From the NCBI RefSeq assembly GCF_024502345.1, contig NZ_JALDNN010000001.1: 64,000 nucleotides of DNA; one strand, given 5' to 3'. The notes under the pieces were generated by a model. The model was not told the origin of the DNA and ran no database searches. It saw nothing but the letters and a program-made list of their open reading frames with translations. Both the position numbers and the translations under genes were made by a program. Below, piece after piece: positions 1,609 to 23,499 of this stretch. Each line of letters starts with the position of its first letter. Within the stretch, counting starts at the first letter, position 1. Source of the stretch: Escherichia coli. Lineage in GTDB: Bacteria > Pseudomonadota > Gammaproteobacteria > Enterobacterales > Enterobacteriaceae.

Positions 1609-1693
1609 AAACGGCAGCACGCCCGGCAACACAATACCTGAATGAAGGCTGCATAATTCGCGGAAATTAACCCGCTGCATTATTTCAGGCGAA

Positions 1694-1978
1694 ATGATTA
1701 TGAAAAATTGTCTACTGTTGGGCGCGCTTTTAATGGGCTTTACTGGTGTGGCGATGGCGCAAAGTGTCACCGTCGATGTGCCGAGTGGATACAAAGTGGT
1801 TGTGGTTCCTGATTCAGTCAGCGTTCCACAAGCGGTCAGCGTCGCGACTGTGCCGCAAACCGTCTATGTGGCTCCTGCGCCAGCTCCGGCTTACCGCCCG
1901 CATCCTTATGTTCGCCATCTTGCCAGCGTAGGTGAAGGGATGGTTATCGAACACCAGATTGACGACCATCACCATTAA
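1694..1978 (+). CDS. ybjH: small secreted protein of unknown function YbjH
   Basis: 94-aa ORF with N-terminal signal peptide (hydrophobic core then AMA-Q), followed by terminator hairpin. Confidence 0.75.
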   Translation: MIMKNCLLLGALLMGFTGVAMAQSVTVDVPSGYKVVVVPDSVSVPQAVSVATVPQTVYVAPAPAPAYRPHPYVRHLASVGEGMVIEHQIDDHHH

Positions 1979-1984
1979 TTCGAG

Positions 1985-2020
1985 AATGCCTGATCGCACA
2001 AAGCAATCAGGCATTTTTTT
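1985..2020. terminator. rho-independent terminator between convergent ybjH and mdfA (probably bidirectional)
   Basis: inverted repeat gaatgcctgat...atcaggcatt followed by T7 run. Confidence 0.6.
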
Positions 2021-3251
2021 ACCCTTCGTGAGAATTTCCCATCTGTTTATCCTTTAAAAAGATAACCATCAGCGACAACCACAAAATTCCGTTGACAAGG
2101 TTGAAGAGATTAAACAGTCCGTTGCCCCCGTTCAGCCAGGCATGTTTGCTGATTTCAATACCGACGGTAAAGATCAGCATTTGCAGCATTCCCATCGCCG
2201 CAGAAACCGTACCTTTACTCATATGGCTGGCAAACAGGGTTAATCGCACCAGTCCCGCATTCGCCAGACCAATACCGAAAGCATAAATACTTAACCCGGC
2301 GGTCATCCATAAATACGCGTGCGATGAGATAACCGTTGCCGCAGCAGCGACCAACAGACCAATCATAATCGGCCAGCCGCCCATAATAATCAGCGAACGT
2401 ACGGTGCGGCGCGAGGTCAGACGCGCTAACAGCAAGTTACCCGCAATTAACGCCCCGAAAATAGGCACTTGCAGCAAACCATATTCATAGCTGCTCAACT
2501 GCTCGCCGGTAATGATGATAATCGGCGACTGAGCGATCCACGCCAGCAACGGCAGGCTAACGAATCCCAGCGCCAGCGCCCCCGCCACAAAGCGACCGTT
2601 CTTCAGCACCAGCTTATAGTCACGACCGAGTTCTTTCAGCGACAGTTTCTCGCCTATACGCGTGGCGGTTTCAGGCATGGCTCGTTGCAGACCGAAAAAG
2701 GAGATCGCTGCCAATGCGGCAAACAAGACAAACATCCCTTCCCAGGGCAGCACATGGATCCACGCCGCGCCCACCAGTGGACCAAGTAGCGGAGCAATCA
2801 GCGCCACGTTCGCCATCAGCGCGGTGATCTTGATACAAACCGCCTCTTCGAAGGATTCCTGAATTGCGGCGTATCCCACAGCGCCAATGAAACAGAGGCT
2901 TATGCCCTGCAAGAAGCGCAACAGGGTGAATTGTTCAATGTTTTGCGCCAGTAATATTGCCAGACAGGTGACAATAAACCACACCACACCCGCCAGCATC
3001 ACCGGACGGCGACCAATACGATCCGACAACGGCCCCAGGAGCCATTGTAAAAACATCCCGCCCGCCAGATACGCGGTCATCGAAGTAGGAACCCAATCAA
3101 TGCCCGCCTGATATTGTTCCACCACGGCCAACATACCGGGTTGAATCATATCGTTGCCGATATAGGTTGAAAATTCGTAAAGCACCAGACAGAGAGGGAA
3201 AAGTAACGCCTGACGTCCAAGCCTGGCACCGGAAGCTAATTTATTTTGCAT
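2019..3251 (-). CDS. mdfA: multidrug efflux MFS transporter MdfA (Cmr)
   Basis: 410-aa ORF, 12-TM MFS-like protein recognised as MdfA by sequence recall. Confidence 0.93.
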
Positions 3252-3535
3252 GCAATTTCTTCGCCAATAATAATCGCGCAGAGTTTAATAAAAGCGCAGC
3301 TAACGAGAAAGCGAATTTTGTAGCTGAAACCGCGGTTAAGCACATTCTTACATTATTGCGAGTATAGCTACGCTTTCTTTAAGTTTTATTTAACCTATGC
3401 CCGTTACAATCACCCACCGTAAACAGGCCGCTTGAGGGAAATAAGACGATGCCGCTTTACCCAGTTTAACCTGCACTTTATTCTCAACGACTTGCCTGTA
3501 TTGGCTCCCTTTTAATCACTTTGCGTCGGGAAGTT

Positions 3536-4132
3536 ATGCTGGAAAATTTGAATCTCTCTCTATTCTCTCTTATTAACGCGACGCCAGACTCGGCTCCGTG
3601 GATGATCTCGTTGGCGATTTTTATTGCTAAAGATTTGATTACCGTGGTGCCGCTGCTGGCCGCGGTACTTTGGTTGTGGGGGCTTACAGCACAACGGCAA
3701 CTGGTGATAAAAATCGCTATCGCGCTGGCGGTCAGCCTGTTTGTGTCCTGGACGATGGGACATCTTTTTCCGCACGACCGACCGTTTGTCGAAAATATCG
3801 GCTATAACTTCCTGCATCATGCGGCGGATGACTCATTCCCGAGCGATCACGGTACGGTGATTTTCACCTTTGCACTGGCATTTTTATGCTGGCATCGCCT
3901 GTGGTCCGGCTCACTTTTAATGGTGCTGGCCGTCGTCATTGCCTGGTCGCGCGTTTATCTTGGCGTCCACTGGCCGCTGGATATGCTCGGTGGATTGCTG
4001 GCAGGTATGATTGGCTGCCTTAGTGCCCAGATTATCTGGCAAGCGATGGGGCATAAACTCTATCAACGTCTGCAATCGTGGTATCGCTTCTGTTTTGCAT
4101 TACCGATCCGCAAAGGCTGGGTGCGTGACTGA
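3536..4132 (+). CDS. ybjG: undecaprenyl-pyrophosphate phosphatase, PAP2 family
   Basis: 198 aa from ATG 3536 (track ORF starts 15 nt upstream); PAP2 motifs PSDH and SRVYLGVHWPLD. Confidence 0.88.
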   Translation: MLENLNLSLFSLINATPDSAPWMISLAIFIAKDLITVVPLLAAVLWLWGLTAQRQLVIKIAIALAVSLFVSWTMGHLFPHDRPFVENIGYNFLHHAADDSFPSDHGTVIFTFALAFLCWHRLWSGSLLMVLAVVIAWSRVYLGVHWPLDMLGGLLAGMIGCLSAQIIWQAMGHKLYQRLQSWYRFCFALPIRKGWVRD

Positions 4133-4189
4133 TCTCTGCTAAAAAGTGTAGTATTGAGCGGCTCGCTTCAATAACTATTCAGAGGGATT

Positions 4190-4948
4190 ATGGAAACACG
4201 TCGCGAAGAGCGTATCGGGCAGCTGCTGCAAGAATTAAAACGCAGCGATAAGTTACATCTTAAAGACGCCGCCGCCCTGCTTGGGGTTTCGGAGATGACG
4301 ATTCGTCGCGATCTGAACAACCACAGTGCGCCCGTCGTTTTGCTCGGCGGCTATATTGTTCTGGAACCGCGCAGTGCCAGCCATTACCTGTTAAGCGATC
4401 AAAAATCCCGCCTGGTGGAAGAAAAACGCCGGGCGGCAAAACTGGCTGCGACACTGGTAGAACCCGATCAGACTCTCTTTTTTGACTGTGGCACCACCAC
4501 GCCGTGGATTATTGAAGCGATTGATAATGAAATCCCTTTTACCGCCGTTTGTTATTCGCTAAATACCTTTCTGGCGCTGAAAGAGAAACCCCATTGCCGC
4601 GCATTTCTGTGCGGTGGTGAATTTCACGCCAGCAACGCCATTTTCAAACCCATCGATTTTCAGCAAACGTTGAATAATTTTTGCCCGGATATCGCTTTTT
4701 ATTCCGCGGCGGGCGTGCATGTCAGTAAAGGCGCTACCTGTTTTAATCTTGAAGAGTTGCCGGTAAAACACTGGGCCATGTCGATGGCGCAAAAGCATGT
4801 GCTGGTTGTCGACCACAGTAAATTTGGCAAGGTGCGTCCGGCGCGCATGGGTGACCTGAAACGCTTTGATATTGTGGTGAGTGATTGTTGCCCGGAAGAT
4901 GAGTATGTGAAGTACGCGCAGACGCACCGTATTAAGTTGATGTATTAA
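4190..4948 (+). CDS. deoR: DeoR transcriptional repressor of the deoxyribose operon
   Basis: 252-aa ORF with N-terminal HTH and DeoR-type C-terminal sugar-phosphate binding domain. Confidence 0.93.
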   Translation: METRREERIGQLLQELKRSDKLHLKDAAALLGVSEMTIRRDLNNHSAPVVLLGGYIVLEPRSASHYLLSDQKSRLVEEKRRAAKLAATLVEPDQTLFFDCGTTTPWIIEAIDNEIPFTAVCYSLNTFLALKEKPHCRAFLCGGEFHASNAIFKPIDFQQTLNNFCPDIAFYSAAGVHVSKGATCFNLEELPVKHWAMSMAQKHVLVVDHSKFGKVRPARMGDLKRFDIVVSDCCPEDEYVKYAQTHRIKLMY

Positions 4949-4953
4949 TGACG

Positions 4954-4985
4954 TATAACCGGATGACGTTTCGCGCCATCCGGTT
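4954..4985. terminator. stem-loop between convergent deoR and dacC
   Basis: inverted repeat ataaccggat...atccggttat. Confidence 0.45.
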
Positions 4986-4994
4986 ATCAGAAGA

Positions 4995-6197
4995 TTAAGA
5001 GAACCAGCTGCCGAACCACTGATGGAATTTCATCATCACGAAATCCCACATCCGACCAAAGAATCCGCCCTCTTCCACATTTTCCATCACGATCAGCGGA
5101 CGCTGCTCAATGGATTTACCGTTAAGCTGGAAATCAATGGTCCCGACAACCTGACCTTTTTTCAGCGGTGCGGTAAGCTGCGGTTCCGTTAACGTGTAGC
5201 TCGCCTTCAGGTTTTTCAGCTGCCCACGCGGTATGGTCACTGAGCCCGCTTCGCCTGCCCCGAGATTCACTTCGCTCTTATCACCAAACCAGACGCGCTG
5301 AGTCACAAAGGTGGCATCAGGTTTAATTGGCGTCACGGTTTCAAAGAAGCGGAAACCCCAGGTCAATAATTTCTCAGACTCATTAAAACGGATACGGTCA
5401 GTTTTCGCCCCCAGCACTACGGAGATTAAACGCATATCGCCCTGGGTAGCCGAAGCAACCAGATTATATCCCGCGCCTGCCGTGGTTCCTGTCTTCATGC
5501 CATCAACATTCAGATTGCTGCTCCACAGCAGACGGTTACGGTTAGGCTGACGAATTTTGTTGAAGGTGAACTCTTTCTCTTTATGAATGGCGTACTCTTC
5601 CGGCACATCGTGGATCAATGCTTTACCCAGCAATGCCATATCGCGCGCGGTACTGAACTGCCCCGGCGCATCCAGACCGTGCACCGTCTGGAAGGTAGTG
5701 TTGGTCAGACCCAGTTTTTTGGCATAACCATTCATCAAACCAATAAATGACTCCTGGCTCCCGGCAACGTAATCGGCCAGCGCAATACAGGCGTCATTAC
5801 CGGACTGGATAATCACACCTTTGTTCAAGTCTGCCACCGAAACCTGATCGCCCGGTTTGAGGAACATTACCGATGAACCACGCAGTGCCGGATTTCCCGT
5901 CGCCCAGGCATCTTTACCGACCGTCACCATATCGGTGAGTTTAATCTTATCGGCCTTAAGCGCCTGCCCAACCACATAGCTGGTCATGATTTTAGTCAGG
6001 CTCGCGGGATCCAGTTTCTCATCCGCGTTGCCTTCTGCCAGCACTTTACCGCTGGCGTAATCCATTAAAATCCATGCACGCGCATCCACGCTCGGCGCTT
6101 CAACGGTTTGTTCCGCCGCGAATGCCGTTGGGGCAAAAAGGAATAAAAATGCAGAACCCGCTGCAAGACCACGAAGGAGAGAGGAGTATTGCGTCAT
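4995..6197 (-). CDS. dacC: D-alanyl-D-alanine carboxypeptidase PBP6
   Basis: 400 aa from ATG at 6197 (track ORF extended by 7 codons); signal peptide, SLTK active-site motif, SGN and KTG motifs. Confidence 0.93.
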
Positions 6198-6443
6198 AAA
6201 TGCCACCCGAGTATCCATTCAAAAAAAATACGTTATATCGCCGTATGATAAGTTCGGTGATTAATAACGCACACACAAACTTAAAGAAACCGTAAGTTGG
6301 TAAAGTTTTTAAAGTTTATGCAATATCCTGCCGCTTCGCTGCTTCTGGTGTCATTTTTTTGCCAGCTGTTGCTTAAAAGTTAACTTTACTTCACCATCGG
6401 AGTCCTGTTCAGCCTGTGGCTGCCTGTCGGAAAAGGGGTGAGT

Positions 6444-7070
6444 ATGATTACGCTGTGGGGTCGGAATAATTCAACCAACGTAAAAAAAGTATTGCTGACG
6501 CTCGAAGAACTGGAACTACCTTATGAGCAAATTCTCGCGGGCCGTGAGTTTGGGATAAATCACGATGCTGATTTTCTGGCGATGACCCCTAACGGGCTGG
6601 TGCCGTTGTTGCGTGACGACGAAAGTGATCTCATTCTTTGGGAATCAAACGCCATTGTCCGCTATCTGGCGGCACAGTACGGGCAAAAACGTCTGTGGAT
6701 CGACTCACCGGCACGTCGTGCGGAAGCGGAAAAATGGATGGACTGGGCAAACCAGACGCTCAGTAATGCTCATCGCGGGATCCTGATGGGATTAGTCAGA
6801 ACACCACCGGAAGAGCGCGATCAGGCCGCCATTGATGCCAGTTGCAAAGAGTGCGACGCCCTGTTTGCCCTGCTCGATGCGGAACTGGCAAAAGTAAAAT
6901 GGTTCTCTGGCGACGAGTTTGGTGTGGGCGATATCGCTATCGCACCGTTCATCTACAATTTGTTTAACGTTGGCCTGACCTGGACACCGCGTCCAAATCT
7001 GCAACGCTGGTATCAGCAACTCACTGAACGCCCCGCAGTGCGCAAAGTGGTGATGATTCCCGTTAGCTAA
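6444..7070 (+). CDS. gstB: glutathione S-transferase GstB (YliJ)
   Basis: 208 aa from second ATG; GST N- and C-terminal domains. Confidence 0.88.
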
Positions 7071-8182
7071 TTGCGTGGGCTAACTTTAAGTAATTCCCCA
7101 CTGGACTCGTCGGTGAGAACGTATAAATAACCGTCGGGTCCAGTGCGAACATCACGAATTCGCTGCCCTCTGTCCGTTAAAATACGGCCATCTTCTGTCA
7201 CTTTGTCGCCGTTGACGCTCATCACAATGACATCTTTATCTTTCAGCGCGCCAATAAATAATTTTTGCTGCCACTGGGGGAACTTATCGCTGTTATAGAA
7301 GGCCATGCCGCTCACAGCGGGCGAATCTTTCCAGTAAAAAACAGGTTGCTCGGTCCCGGCGACGATCTCCCCTTTCGCTTCCGGTATCTTAAAGCCTGAA
7401 TAGTTGATTCCCCAGGTTGCCAGCGGCCAGCCGTAGTTTTTGCCTTTTTGCGGGATATTAATTTCATCACCACCGCGCGGGCCATGTTCATTCAGCCACA
7501 GTGCATTACTCCACGGATTCATCGCCATTCCTTGCGGATTACGAATGCCATAAGACCAGATCTCGGCGCGCGCACCGGATTCCTTTATAAAAGGATTATC
7601 ATCCGGGATTTCGCCCTGATCGGTCAGACGCACCAGTTTGCCCTGTAATTTATCCAGATCCTGCGCCGTCGGGCGCTGATTGTTTTCGCCCAGAGCAATA
7701 AAAAGATAACCTTTACCGTCGAATACCAGCCGCCCGCCAAAATGGTTGCCGGTAGACAGTTTTGGCATCTGGCGGAAGACGGTGCGGAAGTCGGTCACTT
7801 TTGAGAGATCATCACTTAAGCGGCCATAACCCACAGCAGTTCCGGCTTTGCCATCATCGCCAACTTCGGAATAACTTAACCAGATGCGGCGAGACTGAGC
7901 AAAATCAGGCGCTAAAACCACGTCCAGCAGGCCGCCCTGCCCGTGCGCCCAAACGTCCGGAACTCCGGAAAGCGGCGCAGATAATCCTTTTCCTGCTTGC
8001 CAGTGACGCAACTCGCCGCCGCGCAGAGTGATTAACATACCGTGATTATCGGGTAAAAAGGCCAGTGCCCAGGGATGGTCGAGTTTGTCTTGCAGTACTT
8101 CGACATTTACCGTTGCAGGAGCCGCCCAGAGAGCGGAAGAAAGACAAATAAGGGGCACAAGGAAAAAGGATTGTCGATGCAT
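7067..8182 (-). CDS. yliI: PQQ-dependent soluble aldose sugar dehydrogenase YliI
   Basis: 371-aa ORF with signal peptide; beta-propeller glucose/sorbosone dehydrogenase-like; overlaps gstB stop by 4 nt. Confidence 0.88.
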
Positions 8183-8261
8183 AACGCCTCCGGATTGACT
8201 CTGGCTTAAAGCGTAGTCAGTGGAGGAGATAACAAATTCATTTTTACAAAAACTTAAACAT

Positions 8262-8288
8262 GAAGGGGGAGACGCTTTCTCCCCCTTA
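8262..8288 (-). terminator. stem-loop immediately downstream of bssR
   Basis: inverted repeat aaggggga...tccccctt. Confidence 0.5.
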
Positions 8289-8292
8289 GTTT

Positions 8293-8676
8293 TCAGGCCT
8301 TCTCAAGCATGGCGTGCTTCTGCAGGCTCTGGATACTCAGCGTTAAGCTCATCAGACAATTTTCAAGCTTATCGGCGTTGACGGTAATAACAGTCGGGCA
8401 ATCATGGTGCCCACTCATCAAACATACTGCGGCTGCCGCTAATGCTTCTTCAGCATGATGAAGAGCACTCCACTCTTCCTGATCCAGATGAAGATTCAAC
8501 CGCAGCGATTTATCGTGCAGTTCGCGATTCAGTTTAAAAAAGTTATCTCGTAGATGATTGCTTTCGCTGACGGACATGTATCCTTTTGCCTTCCTCAGTT
8601 GCACGTATGCAGCGAGGTCAACGCGTGCGTCGATCAACCGGTTCAGCAGATCGATTCGCTGTCTGTCAACGAACAT
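8293..8676 (-). CDS. bssR: biofilm regulator BssR (YliH)
   Basis: 127 aa from internal ATG of the 138-aa track ORF; recognised by sequence recall. Confidence 0.82.
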   Translation of the reverse strand: MFVDRQRIDLLNRLIDARVDLAAYVQLRKAKGYMSVSESNHLRDNFFKLNRELHDKSLRLNLHLDQEEWSALHHAEEALAAAAVCLMSGHHDCPTVITVNADKLENCLMSLTLSIQSLQKHAMLEKA

Positions 8677-8888
8677 ACTTCGATCCTCCTCTTTCCAGCC
8701 TTGTTGCAATTAAATAGTATGGCTATTTTTTGAGCAAAATGCTGTCCAGGATCAATTCTTCACGCCGAATTAACAAAATTTACATTTCCTTCGCCTCCGC
8801 CAGCGAATGAGATTGCGATACAAATTTTATCCAGAACTCTGTAGAATCCCTGCCCTGACCTTTCCTGTAACTGAATATTTTTTAAGCT

Positions 8889-10214
8889 ATGAGCAAAGTA
8901 ACTCCCCAGCCGAAAATCGGCTTTGTTTCCCTTGGCTGTCCGAAAAACCTTGTCGATTCAGAGCGTATTCTCACCGAACTCCGCACTGAAGGTTATGACG
9001 TGGTACCGAGCTATGACGATGCGGACATGGTGATCGTCAACACCTGCGGCTTTATTGACAGCGCGGTACAAGAATCACTGGAAGCCATTGGTGAAGCGTT
9101 GAATGAAAACGGCAAGGTAATTGTGACCGGTTGTCTGGGGGCAAAAGAAGATCAGATCCGCGAAGTCCACCCGAAAGTGCTGGAAATCACCGGGCCTCAT
9201 AGCTATGAGCAGGTTCTGGAGCACGTTCATCACTACGTGCCAAAACCGAAACACAACCCATTCCTGAGCCTGGTGCCAGAACAAGGTGTGAAACTGACGC
9301 CGCGTCATTATGCCTATCTGAAAATTTCGGAAGGCTGTAATCACCGCTGCACCTTCTGCATTATTCCGTCTATGCGCGGCGACCTGGTGAGCCGTCCGAT
9401 TGGCGAAGTGTTAAGTGAAGCGAAACGTCTGGTAGATGCGGGCGTTAAAGAGATTCTGGTGATCTCGCAGGATACTTCCGCCTATGGCGTTGATGTTAAA
9501 CATCGTACTGGCTTCCACAACGGCGAGCCGGTAAAAACCAGCATGGTCAGCCTGTGCGAACAGTTATCGAAACTGGGGATCTGGACACGTCTGCACTACG
9601 TTTACCCTTATCCGCATGTGGACGACGTCATCCCACTGATGGCAGAAGGCAAAATCCTGCCGTATCTGGACATTCCGTTGCAGCACGCCAGCCCGCGCAT
9701 TCTCAAACTGATGAAGCGTCCGGGTTCTGTAGATCGCCAACTGGCGCGCATCAAACAGTGGCGCGAAATCTGCCCGGAACTGACCCTACGCTCAACCTTT
9801 ATTGTCGGCTTCCCTGGCGAGACAGAAGAAGATTTCCAGATGCTACTCGACTTCCTGAAAGAAGCGCGTCTGGATCGCGTTGGCTGCTTTAAATACAGCC
9901 CGGTTGAAGGTGCAGACGCCAATGCCCTGCCTGACCAGGTTCCGGAAGAAGTTAAAGAAGAACGCTGGAACCGTTTCATGCAGCTGCAGCAGCAGATTTC
10001 CGCCGAGCGCCTGCAAGAGAAAGTGGGCCGTGAAATTCTGGTGATTATCGACGAAGTGGACGAAGAAGGCGCGATTGGTCGCAGCATGGCAGATGCACCG
10101 GAAATCGACGGCGCGGTTTATCTCAATGGTGAAACCAACGTTAAGCCGGGTGATATCCTGCGTGTGAAAGTCGAGCACGCCGATGAGTACGATTTGTGGG
10201 GTAGCCGGGTTTAA
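8889..10214 (+). CDS. rimO: ribosomal protein S12 methylthiotransferase RimO (radical SAM, MTTase)
   Basis: 441-aa ORF; CxxxCxxC radical-SAM motif (CNHRCTFC) plus N-terminal MTTase and C-terminal TRAM domains. Confidence 0.94.
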
Positions 10215-10220
10215 TTAATT

Positions 10221-10250
10221 CAGGCCGGGCAAAATCATTTGTCCGGCCTG
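10221..10250. terminator. bidirectional terminator between convergent rimO and dgcI
   Basis: inverted repeat caggccgggc...gtccggcctg. Confidence 0.55.
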
Positions 10251-10260
10251 CGAATAATGA

Positions 10261-11589
10261 TTACTGCCAGCTAATCTGAGCCCTGCCGTTTTTCTTACTC
10301 TTATACAGCCGCTCATCCGCCAGCATTTTCAAGCGTTCGACGGTGGTACATTCATTTGAATGCGCTACACCGATACTGGTACTTAAATTAATGCTTCCCA
10401 CCTGGAAATGAACGATTTCTTTTAGAATCGATAGCAACTCTTCCAGCGTTCCACCCGTATAAATCACCGCAAATTCGTCACCGCCGAAGCGGTAGATTTT
10501 ACCTTTATCTACCGGGATCTGTGATTTAAGGATTTTCACCACTTTCATCAACACTTCATCGCCCAGCAAATGACCGAAGGTGTCGTTAATGTTTTTGAAT
10601 TTATCGACGTCAAACAGGCACAAATAACCGCCTTTTTCCGGCAGCGCTTTTAAATCTTCGTCAAAGGATTTTCTGCCCATTGCTTTGGTCAGGTCGTCCA
10701 GGAACGCCGAGTTATACATACTGTAGAGTTTTTTGACATCGGCAGCCGAAAAGAAAAGCCCGCCATCCAGTACGCGTTCAAAATGGTTATTAATGATGGC
10801 TTCTTTCTCCACAATACCACGATTAATCACTCTGCGTACCAGATAGAGGCAACTGGTACCCGATATCACTGCCACCAATGCGGCAAAGAAAATAATCAAT
10901 GTACAGACCCGCAAATAAACATCTTTTTTATATGCAAATACGTACAATCCGGTCGGCAAATAGGCGAAGTGCTCCATCGCTTCCGAAACGGTGAAGATGG
11001 CGTTTTTAGCATTATATTCATCACCGGTCACCGGTTTACCGTTCTTAAATAGAGAGAACATCAGGTTCTCGCTGTCCATCGCCAGCGATTTTGACAGTAA
11101 AGAAAAACGCTCCAGACCAAGCAAAAATATCAGACTACGATTGTGAGTTACCGGATAGAGGTAATAGACGAAGGTTTTACCGTCAAAAGAGATAAACCCT
11201 GTATTTTTGACATGTCGATACTTCACAACCTGCATAATATCTGCACAATAATTTTTCTCGAACTCCTTTACCTGAATACATTCGTCACTGGAAATCAGAT
11301 AAGGACCGACATCGTACAAATAAGAGGGGGAAACCGAGTCGGCGTAAGCTGTGCGCAAACCAACCAACAGCTGTTCCTCCGTGGGATTTAGCGTGTTGAT
11401 AAGATCAATTGCCACGCTACGCCGATATTCAGCAATATTTGCCACCGCAAAAGCAGTATCAATAACGGACTGTTTCAGGCTATACACCCGTTCCTTTACC
11501 ATTTGAGTGTAGATCCCGCAGGCTACTGCTGAAATCATGATAAAAATCAGCAGACTGACTGTAAGTACGAACTTATTGATTCTGGACAT
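10261..11589 (-). CDS. dgcI: membrane-anchored diguanylate cyclase DgcI (YliF), GGDEF domain
   Basis: 442-aa ORF; N-terminal TM segments, C-terminal GGDEF domain with RFGGDEF motif. Confidence 0.9.
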
Positions 11590-11907
11590 ACGTAAACTAC
11601 TCTTTTACTAATTTTCCACTTTTATCCCAGGCGGAGAATGGCATGGGTTTCTGGTACAGATACCCCCGAGCCTGAACACATCCTAATTTAATTAATTCGC
11701 GCGCAACGTCTTCGCTCTCTACGCCTTCCGCAATCACCGGGATCCGGTTATAGCGTGCCAGATCGAAAATAATGCGCACAATTTTTCCCGCAGTACCGAA
11801 AATATCGCCGGTAAATTGCGAGTCCACCTTTATGCTGTCTGGATTAATTTCATAAAAACGTTTCAGGTTTGACAAACCGGTGCCAAAGTCATCAATCGAT
11901 ATCCGTA

Positions 11908-11916
11908 CCCCTTGTT
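11908..11916. repeat. IS1 target-site duplication, copy 1 (CCCCTTGTT)
   Basis: 9-bp sequence identical to 12685-12693 immediately outside the IS1 ends. Confidence 0.9.
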
Positions 11917-11931
11917 GGTAATGACTCCAAC

Positions 11932-12435
11932 TTATTGATAGTGTTTTATGTTCAGATAATGCCCGATGACTTTGTCATGCAGCTCCACCGATTTTGAGAA
12001 CGACAGCGACTTCCGTCCCAGCCGTGCCAGGTGCTGCCTCAGATTCAGGTTATGCCGCTCAATTCGCTGCGTATATCGCTTGCTGATTACGTGCAGCTTT
12101 CCCTTCAGGCGGGATTCATACAGCGGCCAGCCATCCGTCATCCATATCACCACGTCAAAGGGTGACAGCAGGCTCATAAGACGCCCCAGCGTCGCCATAG
12201 TGCGTTCACCGAATACGTGCGCAACAACCGTCTTCCGGAGCCTGTCATACGCGTAAAACAGCCAGCGCTGGCGCGATTTAGCCCCGACGTATCCCCACTG
12301 TTCGTCCATTTCCGCGCAGACGATGACGTCACTGCCCGGCTGTATGCGCGAGGTTACCGACTGCGGCCTGAGTTTTTTAAATGGCGGAAAATCGTGTTGA
12401 GGCCAACGCCCATAATGCGGGCGGTTGCCCGGCAT
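11932..12435 (-). CDS. insB: IS1 InsB (transposase catalytic part, expressed as InsAB' by -1 frameshift)
   Basis: 167-aa ORF overlapping insA in the -1 frame. Confidence 0.88.
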
Positions 12436-12629
12436 CCAACGCCATTCATGGCCATATCAATGATTTTCTGGTGCGTACCGGGTTGAGAAGCGGTGTAAGT
12501 GAACTGCAGTTGCCATGTTTTACGGCAGTGAGAGCAGAGATAGCGCTGATGTCCGGCGGTGCTTTTGCCGTTACGCACCACCCCGTCAGTAGCTGAACAG
12601 GAGGGACAGCTGATAGAAACAGAAGCCAC
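12354..12629 (-). CDS. insA: IS1 InsA (transposition inhibitor, N-terminal part of InsAB' transposase)
   Basis: 91-aa ORF with zinc-finger (CPSC...CSHC) and HTH; A6C frameshift motif near its 3' end (12371-12380 on + strand). Confidence 0.9.
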
Positions 12630-12684
12630 TGGAGCACCTCAAAAACACCATCATACACTAAATCAGTAAGTTGGCAGCATCACC

Positions 12685-12693
12685 CCCCTTGTT
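12685..12693. repeat. IS1 target-site duplication, copy 2 (CCCCTTGTT)
   Basis: 9-bp sequence identical to 11908-11916. Confidence 0.9.
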
Positions 12694-14899
12694 TACGCAG
12701 TTGTTCAATATTGAGATAAAAATGTTCATTAATTCGCTCGATCACGGTTTCAGTGATCTCAACACAGAGGCTGTTCGCCTTCAGGCCATTTTCTTTCATG
12801 ATGGTGGTAAAACGCTCATGAAAGTGCGGTTCGTTTAACTGCCAGGGCGAAACATTAATATGCAGTAAGAAATCATCCTTCAGCGACGCACGCTGACTAA
12901 AATGTCTGAATTCACCCATTGCCGTTTTAATAATCTGATAACCCAGCTCAATGATAAACCCGATATCTTCAGCAATGGTAATGAACTTCAGCGGTGAAAT
13001 GATCCCCCGCTCCGCAGAAACCCAACGGCACAACGCCTCCGCGCCCAGAATGGCGCGGGTGTTAATATCAACGATCGGTTGATAGACGAGGAATAGTTCG
13101 CCAATTTCCATTGCATGGCGAATATTACGCGCAATCCAGATATTCTCTTCTATTTCATTGAGTTTCGCGTCATCACAGAAAATAAACTCGGAGAACATAT
13201 GGTCACGGATACTGGAAATCGCCAGTTTCAGTTTTTCTGCGTAACTCCAGGCGTTTTCCCCCTGCAAAGGTTCACAAATGGCAGACTTATGGATGCGCAG
13301 ATTGCGGTAGCCAAAGCTGCTGTCAAAATCGTTTACCATCGCTATTTTACGGGTAAATGTCTGTACATTTTCCCGACACAGAAGTAAATAGAGATCGGCA
13401 TTGAATGTCACGATATCGCAGCATTGCGCATATTTCTCGGCAATTCGCTGACACAATTTCCTGACGATTTTATTGCGTTCATCAACACCAAACACCGCTT
13501 CCACGGCTTCCAGACCACACAGTTTGATGATCCCCACAGCCAGATACTGATTATTGTTGGACTCAATAATCGCCATATTTTTAATAAAACCGCTTTCCTG
13601 ATCGTAAGAGATCAGTGAGAGCAATTTATTTGACCGTTCAATTTCGGCATCTTTCATTTCCGCGATCGAATTTTTGATGCTGATAATCTCTTTCGCATCG
13701 CCTTCGCGAATTTTCAGAGCCTCGATCTGATCCGTTGAGTCGGGCAAAAACGCCAGCGTATTAACCAGCTCGGTCATTTCAGAAAATTGCCGACGGAACA
13801 CACGAGTGGTCATGAAATATACCACCAGCAACACGATAATAATGAACGCAAACGGTAGATAAAAAAGTTTATCTGATGCGTTCAATAAATTACCGCCAGG
13901 ATAATAAAAATAGATTTCGAACAATGCATTATTTGGCACTGCTGATGTCTTTGCAATATACTCCGTATCGACAGAATCAATAATATTATAATTACCTTCG
14001 CTATTATAAATAATCAGTTTTTCACGAGCGAGTTGATTCTTGGCAATGATCTCATGACCTTGTTTCAAAAATAGAACTTCATCATTAGCGCTGATTTGAT
14101 CAAGATACTCGTTCAAATACCGCCAGTTTAAATCGACATGAATTTTATCTACCGCTAACAAATCGTGATCTTTGCCGTTGATACGTAGCGTAAAAGAGAT
14201 ACATTTTTTACCCGGACGATCAAAGCAATTGTATGCCGGATTCCAGCTGTTGTTAGAGTCATCTGAAGCCACCGACCACGGTCGTTTCGATGGGTTAAAA
14301 TCGGCAAAAATAACCCGCCCTGACTCGTCGACAAGCGGTCCATTTACTTGTTCCTGATGATAAACAACGATTTTATCATTCGCCCTCCGTGAAAAGAGAT
14401 AATATTTATTATCATCAAGTACCAGTCCCACCGAGTCTAAAAATGGCATCATTTCCATTTTCAGAATCACGGCGCGTTGAATCTCCTCTGTATTTTTTAA
14501 TAAATACAGTGAGTCCTTTAATGTCAGGGCCGAACGTTCAATATCTTTAAAGAAATAGCCAACGTTTTTCTGAATAAGTTCAAAGCGGCTATCGGCACGT
14601 TTTACCGCGCGTTCCGATACCAGTTGATAGTTAATGATGAAAAAAAGACCAATAAATGACAGTGCTGCCAATAAAAATAAAATTATCAGCCTTATCTTTA
14701 TCTTTTCGTATAAACTCAGCATGTTAATACATTTAACAAAATAACTATCTGAACGCTGTGCCGCTGCAAAAATAGTCCCTTGCTGCGGCTTTTTAACCAA
14801 ATTACCCGATTCTACAAAATCAGCAGAAAGTTACAACACTTGCTTAGGGCAATAATTTCCTGTGAGGTGATTACCCTTTCAAGCAATATTCAAACGTAA

Positions 14900-15811
14900 C
14901 TATCCTTTAATTTTCGGATCCAGCGCATCGCGTAAACCATCGCCCAACAAATTGAACTCCAGTACGGTCAGAAAAATAGCCAGGGCCGGAAAAACAGCGA
15001 CATGCGGCGCGATAACCATATCCGCTCGTGCCTCATTGAGCATTGCTCCCCACTCTGGTGTCGGCGGCTGCGCACCGAGGCCGAGAAATGACAGGCTGGC
15101 GGCAGAGATAATCGAGGTGCCAATGCGCATGGTGAAAAACACCACGATAGACGAGACGGTCCCAGGCAAGATATGACGCAATAAAATGGTCATATCGCTG
15201 GCACCAATACTGCGTGCTGACTCAATAAAGGTTTGCTGTTTCAACACCAGCGTGTTGCCGCGCACCAGTCGGGCAAACGCGGGGATGGAAAAAATGGCGA
15301 CTGCGATAATCACGTTAGCAATGCCGCTTCCCAACACCGCAACAACAGCGATCGCCAGTAAAATACCCGGGAAGGCAAACAGCACATCGCAAATGCGCAT
15401 GATCAGCCGATCCCACCAGCCTTCATAATATCCAGCCAACAAGCCCAGCAACGTCCCGATCGCCGCACCGATAAACACGGCAAACACGCCCGCCGCCAGC
15501 GAGATTTGCGCACCAACCAGGACACGGCTGAAAATGTCGCGCCCCAGTGAATCGACGCCAAACCAGTGCTGCAAAGAAGGTCCGTTATTCAGATTGTCAT
15601 AATCAAAATAATTTTCGGCGTCATAGGGAGCGATCCAGCGTGCAAAAATGGCCACCACAATCAATAAAATAACGAATAATGCGGCGGTCATCGCCATATG
15701 CTGACGGCGAAATCGTCGCCAGAATTCATGCCACGGTGTACGCACCTGGTCAGGTTTGACCAGTGGCATGGCGTTTAACACCGCCTGACGTCGCCAGTTA
15801 AATAGTCGCAT
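14900..15811 (-). CDS. gsiD: glutathione ABC transporter permease GsiD
   Basis: 303-aa ORF, DppC/OppC-type permease. Confidence 0.9.
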
Positions 15812-15813
15812 CC

Positions 15814-16734
15814 TTACTTGTACCTGATAGCCGGGTTAATGGCGGCGTAAAGCACATCCACCACTAAGTTGATAAGAATAAATTCCAGCGAGAAAAGCAG
15901 AATTTCCGCCTGAATCACCGGGTAATCGCGCATTTCTACGGAGTCAACGAGTAAGCGTCCAAGTCCGGGCCAGTTGAAAACTTTCTCCACCACGATAGAA
16001 CCACCGAGCAAAAAGCCAAACTGTAAGCCCATCATGGTCACTACCGGGATCATCGCGTTACGTAGCCCGTGTTTGAGGACAACCCAGGTTTCGCTCACCC
16101 CTTTCGCCCTCGCGGTACGCATATAATCTTCGCTTAAAACATCGACAAACGACGCGCGGGTAAAGCGCGCCATCACGGCTGCCACTGCCGCGCCGAGCGT
16201 CAGGGAGGGTAAAATGTAGTGCTGCCAACTGTCTGCTCCCACGGTAGGCAGCCAGCCCAGTTCAACGGAGAATACCTGAATTAAAAGCATCCCCAGCGCA
16301 AATGCCGGAAACGAGATCCCCGACACCGCAATGGTCATACTCAATCGATCCGGCCAACGATTACGCCAGACGGCGGCGATAATTCCCGCCGCCATACCAA
16401 ATATCACCGCCCAGACCATACTGGTTATGGTCAGCCACAGCGTTGGCATAAAGCGGCTGGCAATCTCATCGGCAACCGGACGACGCGACACCATCGACAG
16501 GCCAAAATCCCCCTGCACAGCATTGCTGATATAGTGCCAGAACTGGTGATACAGCGGCTGATCCAACCCCAGCTGCTGACGCACCAGTTCTATAACCTGC
16601 GCATCAGCTTCGGGCCCGGCAATCAATCGCGCCGGATCGCCGGGCAGCATATGCACAAATAAAAACACCAGCACCGAGACGATAAACAGCGTCGGAATCA
16701 ACCCCAGTAAGCGTTTGATAACGTAATTAAGCAT
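15814..16734 (-). CDS. gsiC: glutathione ABC transporter permease GsiC
   Basis: 306-aa ORF, DppB/OppB-type permease. Confidence 0.9.
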
Positions 16735-16751
16735 TCCACTCCCTGCGTTGC

Positions 16752-18290
16752 TTATTGCAAATCCGCGTCTTCAAAGCTGAAGCCGGTGTCTGGCATGATC
16801 CAAAAACCGGTCAGGTTTTTACTGTGTGCCGACACCAGTTTTTCTACCACCAGCGGGATCCACGGCGACTCTTGCCAGATGATATCCTGCGCCGCCTTAT
16901 ACAAGCGGGTCTTTTCCGCCGGATCATTAGTTTTCAGTGCCTGAGCCAGGAAGTCGTCCACCTGTTTATTGCTGTAAAATGCGGTATTAAACAGCGTCGG
17001 TGGCCAGTTTTGCGAGGCGAACAGTGGCGATAGCGCCCAGTCCGCTTCGCCGGTTGAAGCCGACCAGCCAGTGTAGAACATCCGCACGCCGCTCTCTTTT
17101 TGCCCTTTACCTTCAACTTCTGCCGCCCGCTGTCCGGCATCCATCGCGGTCACCTGGGCTTTAATCCCGACCTGCGCTAACTGCTGCTGGGTAAATTGCA
17201 GCACTTTCTGCGCGGTGCTGTGGTTATGTGACGACCACAGCGTGGTACTGAAACCGTTGGGATATCCCGCCTCTTTCAGTAATTCGCGCGCTTTCACTGG
17301 ATCGTAAGGCCACGGTTTATAACTTTGCGCGTAGGCGATACTTGGCGGTACCACACCAGTAGCTGGCGTTGCATAGCCCGCAAAGGCAACTTTCACCAGC
17401 GCCGGACGGTTAATGGCGTAATTCAGCGCCTCACGGACCTTCGGGTTATCGAACGGCTTTTGCGTCACGTTCATACTGATATAACGCTGCATAATTGACG
17501 GACTGGCCATCAACTCGATATTTTTGTTTTTCTCCAGCAGTGTGGCCTGCTCGTAGGGAATGGGGAAAGCAAACTGCGCTTCACCGGTTTGCAGCATTGC
17601 CGCGCGGGTGTTGTTATCCGCCACCGGACGCCAGGTTATGCTGTCCAGTTTGGGCAATCCTGGCTGCCAGTAACCCGCGAATTTTTTCACCTTCACAAAA
17701 TCGGTCTGATTCCAGGTATCCAGTTCATACGGTCCGGTTCCCACCGGATGAAAACCAATCTCCTTGCCATATTTTTCCAGCGCTGCCGGTGAAATCATCG
17801 CGGTCGCCGGATGGGCAAGAATATTAATAAACGCTGAGAACGGCTGTTTGAGGGTAATCTTTACCGTTGTCGGATCGATCGCCTCCGTTTTGGCAATATT
17901 CTTATACAGGTTATAGCGTTTAAGATGATTCGCCGGATCGCTGGCCCGGTCCAGATTCGCTTTTACCGCCACTGCGTTGAAATCGATGCCATCCTGGAAT
18001 TTAATTCCTTCCCGCAATTTCACGGTGTAAGTAATGCCGTCATCGGAAACGGTATAACTCTCCGCCAGCACGTTTTTCAGTTTCATCTCTTTATCCAGAC
18101 CGAACAGCCCCTGGTAAAACGATTTCGCTACGGCCTGAGATAACGTGTCATTTGCGTCATACGGATCGAGCGTGGTGAAATTCGATCCTACCGCCACCAC
18201 CACATCTTTGGCAGCGAATGCACAAGATGCCATCAACGCTGTCGCAATGCCCAGCGCCACTAACCCACTACGGTGTACAGCTCTTGCCAT
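16752..18290 (-). CDS. gsiB: glutathione-binding periplasmic protein GsiB
   Basis: 512 aa from ATG at 18290 (track ORF is extended by 89 codons); signal peptide then family-5 solute-binding protein. Confidence 0.9.
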
Positions 18291-18309
18291 TTTATTCTCC
18301 GCCTGAATG

Positions 18310-20181
18310 TTATCTACGCATGAATGCGTATTCTGATTGTGGTTGTGCGACGTAATGCCCCGGCCCGACGCATTGCAACGAGACGGCTGCCACCTCTTCG
18401 CCACGCAGATGAATATTGCTGGGAAGATCGTCCGACAGCAGTACACGCTGCGGTCGTTGTCGGGACGGTTCCGCGACCGGAACTGCCGCCAGTAATTTAC
18501 GCGTATAAGGATGCTGCGGGTTTTCGAAGACCGCGCGCCGTGGACCAATTTCAACAATTTGCCCGAGATACATCACCGCCACACGATGACTAATCCGCTC
18601 TACCACGGCCATATCGTGGGAGATAAACAGATACGCAATGCCGAAATCACGCTGGAGATCGAGCAACAAGTTGATAATCTGCCCGCGAATAGAAACATCC
18701 AGCGCCGAAACGGCTTCGTCGGCAATGATCACTTTTGGATTCAATGCCAACGCGCGAGCAATGCAGATGCGCTGGCGCTGACCGCCGGAAAACTCATGCG
18801 GGTAACGCCAGGCATGTTCAGGTAACAGGCCCACGCGCTCCAGCAACCACGCAACGCGTGCAGCCGCGTCTTTACCTGGCAATAAACCGTGTACACGCAG
18901 CGGTTCGATAATCGAATCACCGATGGTCTGACGTGGGTCCAGCGAAGCGTAAGGGTCCTGAAAAATAAACTGAATATCCCGGCGCAATGCCTGAAGTTTG
19001 CCGGGTGACAAGGTATCGATTCTCTGACCGTTAAAGATAATTTCGCCGCCCTGCGATTCGACCAGGCGCAGCAACGCCCGCCCGGTAGTGGATTTACCGC
19101 TGCCAGACTCACCAACCAGCGATAGCGTTTCGCCAGGCCAGAGATCAAAACTGACTTTCTCAACGGCATGCACTTCCCGCGTTACGCGATTCAACAAACC
19201 GCTGCGCAAAGGGAAACGGGTGACCAGATTACGCACCCGTAAAACAGGTTCGCCATCCACCACCGTTTTCTGCTCGATGGGGGGTTCCTGTTTCGCTGGA
19301 TGTTCAAGCGATATCAACGGGAAACGTCGGGGATAATCTAACCCTTTCATCGCACCAAGTTGCGGAACAGCAGCTAACAGCGCACGGGTGTAAGGATGTT
19401 GCGGTGCATGAAAAATCTGTTCGACGGTACCCGTTTCCACCGCCTCGCCCTGATACATCACCAGTACCCGATCGGCAATCTCTGCCACCACGCCCATATC
19501 GTGAGTGATAAAGATAACGCCCATCGACATCTCTTTTTGCAATACTTTGATTAATTGCAGGATCTGCGCCTGAATAGTGACATCCAGCGCGGTGGTTGGC
19601 TCATCGGCAATCAGCACCGCCGGGCGGCATGACAGCGCCATCGCAATCATCACTCGCTGGCGCATCCCGCCAGAGAGTTGATGCGGATAACGTGAAAGAA
19701 TGGTTTGTGCCTCAGGAATGCGTACCTGATCCAGCATCCGCTTCGCCTCGACCATCGCTTCTTCACGACTGGCGTTCTGATGCAGACGAATTGATTCGGC
19801 AATCTGTTCACCCACAGTAAATACCGGGTTCAGCGATGTCATCGGCTCCTGAAATATCATCGCCATATCCGCACCGCGAACATGGCGCATTTGTGCAGCG
19901 CTCTGCTCGCTAAGTTCAATCACTTCGCGACTGCGCCGCTGCAACAGCATTTTATCGCACTGTACTAAACCGCCCGCCTGTTCCAACAGGCGCATCAATG
20001 CCAACGCAGTCACTGACTTACCGGAGCCGGATTCGCCAACAATTGCCAGCGTCTCACCGCGTTGCAGACTAAAAGAGAGATTGCGGACCGCAGCTATTTT
20101 CTGCTGGTCCTGCATAAAGGCAATATTCAGATTTTCAACCGCCAGCACATTACCGGCATCAAGTTCATCACTGTGTGGCAA
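18310..20181 (-). CDS. gsiA: glutathione ABC transporter ATP-binding protein GsiA (two fused ABC domains)
   Basis: 623 aa if initiated at the TTG at 20181, giving a 14-nt overlap with the iaaA 3' end; two Walker A (GESGSGKS) motifs. Confidence 0.85.
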
Positions 20182-21133
20182 CGGTGTCCCCTTTTTCACG
20201 GTAGATACCGGTGGTTGGCGTATCGCCTGCGTAGCCCCAGGCGCGATACATTCCTTCGGTGTTAAACGGTAGCGCGACATTCCCTTCATGGTCGATAGCG
20301 ATTAAGCCACCGCTACCGCCAAGCGCAGGGAGTTTTTCCATTACTACCCGCTCGCAGGCTTCCGCGAGACTTAATCCGCCGTAATCCATTAACGCGGCGA
20401 TGTCATATGCCGCCAGCGCGCGGATGAAGACTTCGCCCGTGCCGGTACAAGAAACCGCCACACTGGCGTTATTGGCGTAGCATCCGGCACCCACTAAGGG
20501 ACTATCGCCAACTCGTCCGGGTAATTTATTGGTCATTCCGCCTGTGGACGTGGCTGCCGCCAAATTGCCGTCTAAATCCAACGCCACGGCCCCCACGGTG
20601 CCCATTTTCTGTTTTTCATCCAGTGGCGCACCGCTATGGTCGAGGACGGTTGCCCCTTCCTTGCGCGCTGCCAGTAGTTGTTCATAACGCAAAGGCGTGG
20701 AGAAAATCTCCGGCGAGACACGCTCCATGCCACGAGCAAACGCAAAATTTTCTGCCCCTTCGCCAATCATCATCACATGCGGGCTTTGCTCCATCACCAG
20801 CCGGGCGGCAAGAACCGGATTACGCAGATGACTAACGCCCGCCACCGCACCGGCTTTCAGGGTGTTACCATCCATCACACAGGCGTCCAGTTCATGGGTT
20901 TCATCACGCGTAAAGACAGCGCCAATTCCGGCGTTAAACAGTGGACACTCTTCCAGCAGACGCACCGCTTCCGTCACCACATCCAGCGCACTTTCGCCCG
21001 CTTCCAGCATTTTCTGCCCGGTTTCAACAATGGCAGACAACGCCTCAATGTAGCGTAATTCCTGTTGCAGACTCATCTGCGCGCGGCTAATTGCACCTGC
21101 GCCACCATGAATTGCAATGACTGCTTTGCCCAT
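20168..21133 (-). CDS. iaaA: isoaspartyl dipeptidase / L-asparaginase (Ntn hydrolase) IaaA
   Basis: 321 aa from ATG at 21133; plant-type asparaginase family with conserved GT autoproteolysis site. Confidence 0.9.
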
Positions 21134-21336
21134 AGTATTCATCCATTAAGGGTGGCTCGCCACTTTTGCTATAAATATCAGAATTTTTATGAATTACTCA
21201 TTCAATTTTTGAATATAGAAAGATGGATATGGCATGTAAAGGCAGGAGCCAACGCTACGCCCGAGGTGGCATACAGTCTGTGGCGTTTTTCTGACATAAT
21301 AGGCAAATTCGATTTTGCCTCCGCAGGAGTGTTTTC

Positions 21337-22572
21337 ATGGAATTTACCACCGGATTGATGTCGCTCGACACCGCGCTTAATGAGATGCTTTCTCGCGTCA
21401 CCCCACTGACCGCCCAGGAAACGCTGCCACTGGTACAGTGTTTTGGTCGTATTCTGGCGAGCGATGTCGTTTCGCCGCTTGATGTTCCGGGGTTTGATAA
21501 CTCCGCAATGGACGGCTACGCGGTGCGTTTAGCCGATATTGCCTCCGGGCAACCGCTGCCCGTTGCCGGTAAATCCTTTGCCGGTCAGCCGTATCATGGT
21601 GAATGGCCTGCGGGCACCTGCATTCGTATTATGACCGGTGCGCCGGTGCCGGAAGGCTGCGAAGCGGTGGTGATGCAGGAGCAGACTGAACAAACGGACA
21701 ATGGCGTGCGTTTTACTGCTGAAGTGCGTAGCGGGCAAAATATTCGCCGTCGCGGTGAAGATATCTCTGCAGGTGCGGTTGTTTTCCCGGCGGGAACTCG
21801 CCTGACTACCGCAGAGCTGCCAGTAATTGCTTCACTGGGGATTGCCGAAGTTCCGGTGATTCGTAAAGTGCGTGTAGCGCTTTTTTCTACCGGTGATGAA
21901 CTCCAGTTGCCCGGTCAGCCGCTGGGCGACGGCCAAATCTACGACACCAACCGTCTCGCCGTACACCTGATGTTAGAACAGCTGGGTTGCGAGGTAATCA
22001 ACTTAGGGATTATCCGCGACGATCCCCATGCCCTGCGCGCCGCATTTATTGAAGCCGACAGCCAGGCGGATGTAGTGATCAGTTCCGGCGGTGTTTCAGT
22101 GGGTGAAGCGGATTACACCAAAACGATTCTTGAAGAGCTGGGGGAGATCGCCTTCTGGAAGCTGGCGATTAAACCAGGTAAACCGTTCGCGTTCGGTAAA
22201 CTCAGCAATAGCTGGTTCTGCGGCCTGCCGGGCAACCCGGTTTCAGCGACGCTGACCTTCTATCAACTGGTACAGCCTTTGCTGGCAAAACTAAGCGGCA
22301 ACACCGCCAGCGGCCTGCCCGCGCGCCAGCGCGTACGCACAGCGTCCCGCCTGAAAAAAACGCCAGGACGTCTTGATTTCCAGCGCGGCGTGCTGCAACG
22401 CAACGCCGACGGTGAACTTGAAGTGACGACCACCGGACATCAGGGTTCACATATATTTAGCTCCTTTAGTCTCGGCAACTGCTTTATCGTGCTGGAACGC
22501 GATCGCGGCAATGTGGACGTGGGCGAATGGGTGGAAGTAGAACTGTTTAACGCGTTGTTCGGAGGCCTGTAA
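21337..22572 (+). CDS. moeA: molybdopterin molybdenumtransferase MoeA
   Basis: 411-aa ORF. Confidence 0.93.
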
Positions 22573-23321
22573 TGGCGGAACTCAGCGATCAGGAGATGCT
22601 GCGCTACAACCGGCAAATCATTCTGCGCGGTTTTGATTTTGACGGTCAGGAGGCGCTAAAAGATTCTCGTGTGCTGGTAGTCGGCCTCGGTGGACTCGGC
22701 TGCGCAGCTTCGCAGTATCTGGCAAGCGCCGGTGTCGGCAACCTGACGCTGCTCGACTTCGACACGGTTTCGCTCTCGAATCTGCAACGCCAGACACTGC
22801 ACAGTGATGCCACGGTCGGGCAACCGAAGGTGGAATCCGCCCGTGACGCCCTGACGCGGATCAACCCACATATCGCGATTACGCCAGTCAATGCACTGCT
22901 AGATGACGCAGAACTTGCAGCATTGATTGCTGAACACGATCTGGTGCTCGACTGTACGGATAACGTTGCGGTACGTAATCAACTGAACGCAGGCTGTTTT
23001 GCCGCGAAGGTGCCGCTGGTTTCCGGCGCGGCAATTCGTATGGAAGGGCAAATCACGGTCTTCACTTATCAGGACGGCGAACCTTGCTATCGCTGCCTTA
23101 GCCGTTTGTTTGGCGAGAACGCATTAACCTGCGTAGAAGCAGGCGTGATGGCACCGTTGATCGGCGTAATTGGTTCGTTGCAGGCAATGGAAGCGATCAA
23201 ACTGCTGGCAGGTTATGGCAAACCGGCCAGCGGGAAAATCGTCATGTACGATGCGATGACCTGTCAGTTTCGCGAAATGAAACTGATGCGCAATCCGGGG
23301 TGTGAGGTGTGCGGGCAGTAA
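22572..23321 (+). CDS. moeB: molybdopterin-synthase adenylyltransferase MoeB
   Basis: 249-aa ORF; ThiF/MoeB fold with GLGGLG nucleotide motif and CxxC pairs; ATG overlaps moeA stop (TAATG). Confidence 0.93.
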   Translation: MAELSDQEMLRYNRQIILRGFDFDGQEALKDSRVLVVGLGGLGCAASQYLASAGVGNLTLLDFDTVSLSNLQRQTLHSDATVGQPKVESARDALTRINPHIAITPVNALLDDAELAALIAEHDLVLDCTDNVAVRNQLNAGCFAAKVPLVSGAAIRMEGQITVFTYQDGEPCYRCLSRLFGENALTCVEAGVMAPLIGVIGSLQAMEAIKLLAGYGKPASGKIVMYDAMTCQFREMKLMRNPGCEVCGQ

Positions 23322-23332
23322 TTGCCACCTCC

Positions 23333-23415
23333 AGGCCTGATAAGACGCGACAAGCGTCGCATCAGGCATTTGCTCCAGACGCCAGATGCGGCGTGAACGC
23401 CTTATCTGGCCTACG
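23333..23415. repeat. REP elements (BIME-type pair) downstream of moeB
   Basis: aggcctgataagacgcgacaagcgtcgcatcaggc and gccagatgcggcgtgaacgccttatctggcctac, typical REP palindromes. Confidence 0.8.
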
Positions 23416-23499
23416 GTTCGGGCACAGATTTCCAAGCGCGGCAGGCATCGGTGCACTCCGCCACGTCATCAGCAATTTATGAGGATGCAGAACGTCCGG

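Follow-up and report, generated by a model that had tools for sequence, protein, structure and literature searches.

A simple IS1 insertion splits the EAL domain of pdeI in Escherichia coli

The gene pdeI (yliE) in the 64-kb stretch of Escherichia coli DNA analyzed here (henceforth the window) is split within its EAL domain by a textbook simple insertion of IS1, an ordinary kind of gene knockout. On the reading that we regard as very probably correct, in an E. coli lineage with an open pdeI a single IS1 of the IS1B/IS1C type would have inserted at codon 680, with the 9-bp target duplication usual for IS1 and no other rearrangement, with the consequences for pdeI and the adjacent dgcI, and the targeting by AT-rich composition, that we propose below. 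A survey of the literature for a previously described allele with IS1 in yliE/pdeI found nothing relevant.

The element is bounded on both sides by exact copies of the 9-mer CCCCTTGTT, the left one at positions 11908-11916 of the window (nucleotides 2030-2038 of pdeI) and the right one at 12685-12693, which lie 777 bp apart from start to start. The chance of nine matches out of nine at positions set by the ends of the IS is 4^-9 (~4e-6), and target duplications of 8-9 bp are characteristic of IS1 (PMC12428005, PMC5009759). The empty site is seen in E. coli K-12 MG1655, which has a single copy of CCCCTTGTT at 875008-875016 within an intact pdeI (b0833). When the two loci are aligned, window positions 1-11916 correspond to K-12 886923-875008 and window positions 12685-23352 to K-12 875016-864349, with a 9-bp overlap at the site. 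The gene order is gsiABCD-pdeI-dgcI-rimO, the window reading the region in reverse relative to K-12. Removal of the IS1 together with one copy of the repeat restores an uninterrupted ORF of 2,349 nucleotides, encoding 782 amino acids followed by the stop codon. The original prediction had called a complete 768-bp IS1 with both inverted repeats, insA and insB, identical flanking repeats, two pdeI pieces sharing a frame across a 777-bp insertion and an intact K-12 counterpart; each of these points was borne out, the coordinates of the IS1 being exact to the base. The flanks are colinear with K-12, and the insertion structure is uncontradicted by any result. This is the sole IS1 copy in the window, and alignment to K-12 revealed no other large insertion in it relative to that genome.

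The IS1 itself is complete (768 bp, 11917-12684) and, like pdeI, has its transposase genes on the minus strand. It is delimited by the right terminal inverted repeat (IRR; GGTAATGACTCCAACTTATTGAT) at 11917-11939 and the left one (IRL; ATCAGTAAGTTGGCAGCATCACC) at 12662-12684, whose arms are 23 nucleotides each and 78% complementary. Between these lie insA (12354-12629, minus strand; 91 amino acids), with matches to NF033558 and to the IS1 zinc-binding domain model NF050000, and the insB' reading frame (11932-12435, minus strand), a 167-amino-acid ORF expressed as the InsAB' fusion and matching NF033558 with 143.8 bits. A programmed -1 frameshift motif of the A6C type, TTAAAAAACTC, is present at 12370-12380 (IS1 nucleotides 305-315), and the 232-residue InsAB' fusion generated by the -1 shift spans model positions 1-199 of 199 of NCBIfam NF033558 ('IS1 family transposase') with 243.8 bits against a cut-off of 100 bits. 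Relative to the copies of K-12 MG1655, it shares 766 of 768 nucleotides with IS1B (279163-279930) and IS1C (290634-291401) and differs from IS1A at 7. The 768-bp length, the inverted repeats, the insA/insB' layout and the frameshift site are all held in common with IS1B/IS1C, from which the window copy is distinguished by base changes at positions 65 and 642 (in the plus orientation of the window) and by its chromosomal location. Its length and inverted repeats, the insA-insB' frameshift, the duplication in the 8-9-bp range and the near-identity to known isoforms place it firmly in the IS1 family, and with all of its sequence features intact it looks to be a complete, transposition-competent element. 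An Rfam search was negative for RNA elements at the insertion and in its vicinity. Elsewhere in the window it recovered two REP-type elements matching naRNA4, at 23334-23411 (79.6 bits) and 50001-50071 (78.4 bits), the first of them in a stretch of 100 bp (23353-23452), lying between fsaA and moeB, that has no K-12 counterpart, and a match to the ES036 (CssrF) sRNA at 55304-55346 (37.9 bits versus a gathering score of 37.6). Conversely, ~140 bp of K-12 (845601-845741, from the ybiO-glnQ spacer) are missing at window position ~42060.

The reconstituted ORF is the orthologue of PdeI, as is evident from its CHASE9 and EAL domains (Pfam; residues 35-150, E = 2e-62 and residues 532-767, E = 6e-68, respectively) and its gsiD-pdeI-dgcI-rimO context. 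It is identical to K-12 PdeI (YliE, b0833) at 777 of 782 residues, with five substitutions, and has the same length, domain architecture and synteny; unlike b0833, the window gene is broken at codon 680 and has the substitutions N591I and Q760R. The break separates the first base of codon 680 from the other two, such that the frame runs G/GG TGA (the slash marking the break) across the junction of AAACAAGGGG with GGTGATGC, and bases 3-5 of the IRL on the minus strand constitute the TGA that terminates the cut-off PdeI. As translated, the 5' fragment (12680-14722, minus strand) thus comprises residues 1-679 and an additional Gly, with the terminus ...RKQG-G-stop inside the IS1. Of the 236 residues of the EAL domain this product has the first 148, together with the CHASE9 domain, the transmembrane segments and a divergent GGDEF-like region. 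The 3' fragment (11597-11916, minus strand), consisting of codons 680-782 and the stop codon, is orphaned without a start of its own; a 92-amino-acid TTG-started ORF within it corresponds to WP_256632802.1 / MCQ7031229.1.

In EAL enzymes the two aspartates of the DDFGTG motif hold the catalytic metals. Alignment to solved EAL domains (5yrp, 2r6o/3n3t) indicates that the EAL, N and EITE motifs stay on the 5' product, and that DDFGTG, the Lys that follows it, EGVE and the conserved Gln, which make up the remainder of the active site, reside on the orphaned 3' fragment. Consequently, no single polypeptide has the full complement of active-site motifs (EAL, N, EXXE, DDFGTG, K, E and Q). Given that DDFGTG and all later motifs are missing from the product, we can safely infer from established EAL enzymology that the truncated PdeI would be unable to hydrolyze c-di-GMP. 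The break does fall between ...EQLRKQG and VRISIDDFGTG, as had been originally noted; the accompanying claim that it sets the sensor and membrane part apart from DDFGTG is right about the loss of that motif but needs amendment in that the break lies inside the EAL domain (residues 532-767), 148 residues of which are kept upstream of it.

The notion of a transposition into an intact gene likewise holds only in part: the frame was open, but the reconstituted protein bears two private substitutions. Codon 760 (11666-11668, minus strand) reads CGG (Arg) in place of the CAG (Gln) of other E. coli, and codon 591 (12950-12952, minus strand) reads ATT (Ile) in place of their AAT (Asn). In the solved EAL domains, the residue that corresponds to Gln760 is the conserved Gln. 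Searches with a 65-nucleotide probe for the codon-760 allele gave no match reaching 99% identity in any of 4,903 matching complete genomes, and a 67-nucleotide probe for the codon-591 allele gave no full-length exact match in complete genomes; together, both changes are absent from about 4,900-5,350 complete genomes. The complete genome closest to 24 kb of the flanks, HCP4S3_I4 (99.7%), has an intact pdeI.

These changes raise the alternative that pdeI was functionally dead or altered before the arrival of the IS1, with Q760R coming first and the element then hitting a gene already freed from selection. Consistent with this, N591I and Q760R are the only two base differences between the reconstituted gene and the HCP4S3_I4 allele, both are nonsynonymous and located in the EAL domain, and neither was encountered among the complete genomes probed. 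However, just two changes cannot tell the order of Q760R and N591I versus the insertion, and substitutions that accrued once the insertion had lifted the constraint should give the same pattern. Moreover, the SNP density of pdeI (2 in 2.3 kb) is equal to that of its neighbors gsiD, dgcI and rimO (7 in 5.6 kb), and we found no genome combining either substitution with an empty site. We accordingly regard prior loss of function as rather unlikely. The substitutions also fit decay subsequent to the inactivation of pdeI, as might follow from simple transposition into an open gene.

The locus as a whole is recurrently visited by IS1. Using a 2-kb flank-IS1-flank query (at least 80% covered, with the IS1 within ~1.5 kb of the query flanks), we found same-orientation IS1 near the pdeI site in 63 of 5,426 complete genomes and inverted IS1 in 49 more, in every case at a position other than that of the window. 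Hence, at least 112 complete genomes have an IS1 elsewhere in or next to pdeI/dgcI. Six of the cases within pdeI were mapped, and they present six different configurations. Five have target duplications of 8-9 bp, namely GPEC1201 (pdeI nucleotides 1846-1854), E4 (1130-1138), YZ22MPE54 (1774-1782), YZLc1-3 (277-284) and LR4 (2009-2017, with an IS1 variant that is 93% identical), whereas THO-010 has an inverted IS1 adjoining a deletion of pdeI nucleotides 701-2051 and lacks a target duplication. All six involve the same gene and the same element family as in the window; the PGAP annotation renders such insertions as split pseudogenes labeled 'EAL domain-containing protein' and 'CHASE9 sensor domain-containing protein'. 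Some of the IS1 copies in these other strains are of the IS1A type, as opposed to the IS1B/IS1C type of the window copy. The THO-010 element (NZ_AP022540.1; 3596-4363 of the fetched locus) is 100% identical to the window copy, albeit inverted. One of its flanks ends 14 nucleotides from the window target site and the other joins pdeI nucleotide 700, 1.35 kb of pdeI having been deleted beside the element without a target duplication. A separate peculiarity of YZLc1-3 is the presence of a RelE/ParE toxin and HTH antitoxin pair between rimO and dgcI (687-1392 of the fetched locus), where the window and K-12 have a spacer of only 46 bp.

The significance of this recurrence depends on the composition of the target. 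No part of the window is richer in AT than the pdeI/dgcI pair (42% GC versus ~52%), and IS1 is known to prefer AT-rich regions (PMC5009759). Identical synthetic flank-IS1-flank queries were run against the complete genomes for control loci, and the count of genomes with a same-orientation IS1 was 1 for gsiA/B (53% GC), 3, representing one event, for opgE (49% GC), 13 for evgS (41% GC) and 25 for pdeC (45% GC), as compared to the 63 for pdeI (45% GC in the query flanks, 42% in pdeI and dgcI). The absence of any IS1 enrichment at pdeI, as posited under a naive uniform expectation of ~30 genomes, was rejected, the GC-typical controls having yielded 1 and 3 genomes. In terms of IS1-bearing genomes, pdeI exceeds the AT-rich controls by 2.5-5 times. 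When distinct IS1 configurations are counted instead (at least 17 for pdeI among the 40 matches listed, ~13 for evgS and ~12 for pdeC), the event-level excess of pdeI over these controls is roughly two-fold. The enrichment at pdeI is therefore real but mostly compositional. In light of the control counts, the 42% GC content and the AT preference of IS1, the element would have landed at pdeI through its preference for AT-rich targets, with selection not being required; a modest contribution of weak constraint or selection to the recurrence is possible, if of low probability. As in pdeI, the disruptions of pdeC and evgS are recurrent, multi-site insertions of IS1 into AT-rich non-essential genes, though seen in fewer complete genomes. 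When a mid-gene position in pdeC was picked arbitrarily, it proved to lie inside a single gapped alignment of genuine IS1 insertions from at least 11 complete genomes; the genomes with IS1 in pdeC include a group of O6:H16 ETEC (e.g. M9682-C1 and E166).

A stronger version of the selective argument would hold that the insertion is adaptive, with loss of PdeI or of pdeI-dgcI being favored here and convergently in many lineages. The 63 and 49 of 5,426 genomes with IS1 within ~1.5 kb of the site, the different position of each of the six mapped cases, the lower counts at the AT-rich controls evgS and pdeC, and the private change in the window allele at a conserved catalytic-site Gln can all be cited in its favor. 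Against it, the excess of pdeI shrinks to about two-fold once distinct events are considered, and a handful of clones account for much of the genome count, as illustrated by the ~20 genomes recovered with the inverted query that share one span of 2,734 bp. Further, pdeC, another AT-rich phosphodiesterase gene, is also often hit, and an accessory sensor that is poorly expressed and under weak purifying selection would yield the same pattern. On balance, we consider adaptive loss improbable. We give slightly less credence still to the related proposal that pdeI-dgcI is a target of convergent IS1-mediated loss beyond what AT preference accounts for, with the window allele, which has the additional private Q760R change, being one among dozens of independent knockouts; were it true, it would suggest that in some niches this pair of a sensor phosphodiesterase and a cyclase is repeatedly selected against.

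Regardless of why the element landed where it did, its effects might extend beyond pdeI. IS1 insertions are classically polar, and dgcI (yliF; 10261-11589, minus strand) starts just 7 bp after the pdeI stop codon. It encodes an intact 442-residue GGDEF protein with an intact GGDEF motif and 3 substitutions relative to K-12. A simple, weak scan of the interval between the IS1 and the dgcI start (11597-11916) found no promoter-like site, with counts near the shuffled expectation. The 7-bp gap and the lack of a consensus promoter in this interval suggest that pdeI and dgcI may be co-transcribed. Because of this tight spacing and the classical polarity of IS1, the expression of dgcI is probably reduced, and the lesion would probably affect the whole two-gene pdeI-dgcI module.

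What this would mean for c-di-GMP levels is complicated by conflicting reports on the net activity of PdeI. On the one hand, it has been described as lowering c-di-GMP, and its overexpression blocks phage N4, as does that of five other phosphodiesterases (PMC7553319). On the other, a 2024 study, also using overexpression, reported that it raises c-di-GMP ~11-fold in a G412-dependent manner (PMC11651652). In vitro, EAEC 55989 colonizes K-12 biofilms more readily when yliE is deleted, an effect not seen in mice (PMC3646849). The conflict between the reports on PdeI limits the prediction of phenotypes from a pdeI knockout, which are less predictable than the original note implied, and, in conjunction with the probable polarity on dgcI, makes the direction of any c-di-GMP change resulting from the lesion uncertain and not a safe inference.

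The same conflict bears on whether the truncated 680-residue PdeI could be something other than a null, namely a separation-of-function product that keeps a c-di-GMP-raising or signaling activity while losing hydrolysis. The CHASE9 domain and the membrane anchor are still present in the product, as is the divergent GGDEF-like region with G412, on which the reported rise in c-di-GMP depends (PMC11651652). In addition, residues 377-679 of the product can still be aligned with the GGDEF-EAL part of the NCBIfam models DosP and GepA, in agreement with the divergent GGDEF region proposed in that study. However, Pfam detects no GGDEF domain in the reconstituted PdeI, and the claim of synthase activity rests on overexpression and is at odds with the report of PMC7553319. 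Moreover, the product ends in the middle of the EAL fold, after 148 of 236 domain residues, a situation that usually leads to misfolding and proteolysis. We therefore deem a residual activity of this kind very unlikely.

Turning to the phyletic distribution of the exact junction, none of 5,426 complete RefSeq E. coli genomes has it, as determined with 100-nucleotide queries across each of the two junctions. These queries returned 22 and 7 matches at 80% coverage or more, none of which is a true single-piece junction: nearly all are two 50-nucleotide pieces joined across 21-544 bp, that is, IS1 at other sites, and one per junction side is a chance match to an IS1 end. A 46-nucleotide junction query likewise gave 0 matches in the JGI metagenomes. 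The exact 680-residue truncated PdeI product is, however, encoded on six other contigs. Three of these six were read (ENA ERZ27268145, Logan SRR24000611 and ENA ERZ773152; metagenome or run assemblies), and each spans the upstream, IRL-side junction, reading from gsiB across pdeI and into the same end of the IS1 with 99.93-99.98% identity to the window. All three also have N591I. The 92-amino-acid protein from the 3' fragment is annotated by NCBI on a 4,736,520-bp E. coli contig. A Shigella origin, considered since no complete E. coli genome matched better than 99.7%, was rejected: the window has a single IS1 and no further large insertion compared with K-12, and NCBI assigns the 3'-fragment protein to E. 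coli. Because three contigs from other samples have the same junction, it marks a lineage, if a sparsely sampled one, and not just a single isolate. Hence, the strain-specific lesion of the original prediction, while supported by the absence of the junction from the complete genomes, is better described as lineage-specific. That the assembler misplaced an IS1 into pdeI can be dismissed as vanishingly improbable: IS elements are frequent sites of misassembly and the junction is missing from the complete RefSeq genomes and the JGI metagenome scan, but the 9-bp duplication is perfect and exactly at both IS1 ends, the upstream junction is crossed by three contigs from other samples, and the 3' fragment figures in the NCBI annotation of the 4.74-Mb contig.

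Finally, with regard to the meaning of these observations, pdeI in this lineage is to be annotated as an IS1-disrupted pseudogene, and the lesion has little significance beyond that. Phenotypes dependent on PdeI, and probably those dependent on DgcI, such as biofilm colonization resistance, N4 sensitivity upon overexpression and persister-linked c-di-GMP heterogeneity, should not be assumed in the lineage. The junction, being absent from 5,426 complete genomes, offers a convenient lineage marker. At a more general level, IS1 is 10-60 times more common in the AT-rich genes pdeI, pdeC and evgS than in neighboring genes of typical GC content, and recurrent IS hits should not be taken as a sign of selection unless composition-matched controls are at hand. 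The window thus provides a small but concrete illustration of how target preference shapes the spectrum of pseudogenes.
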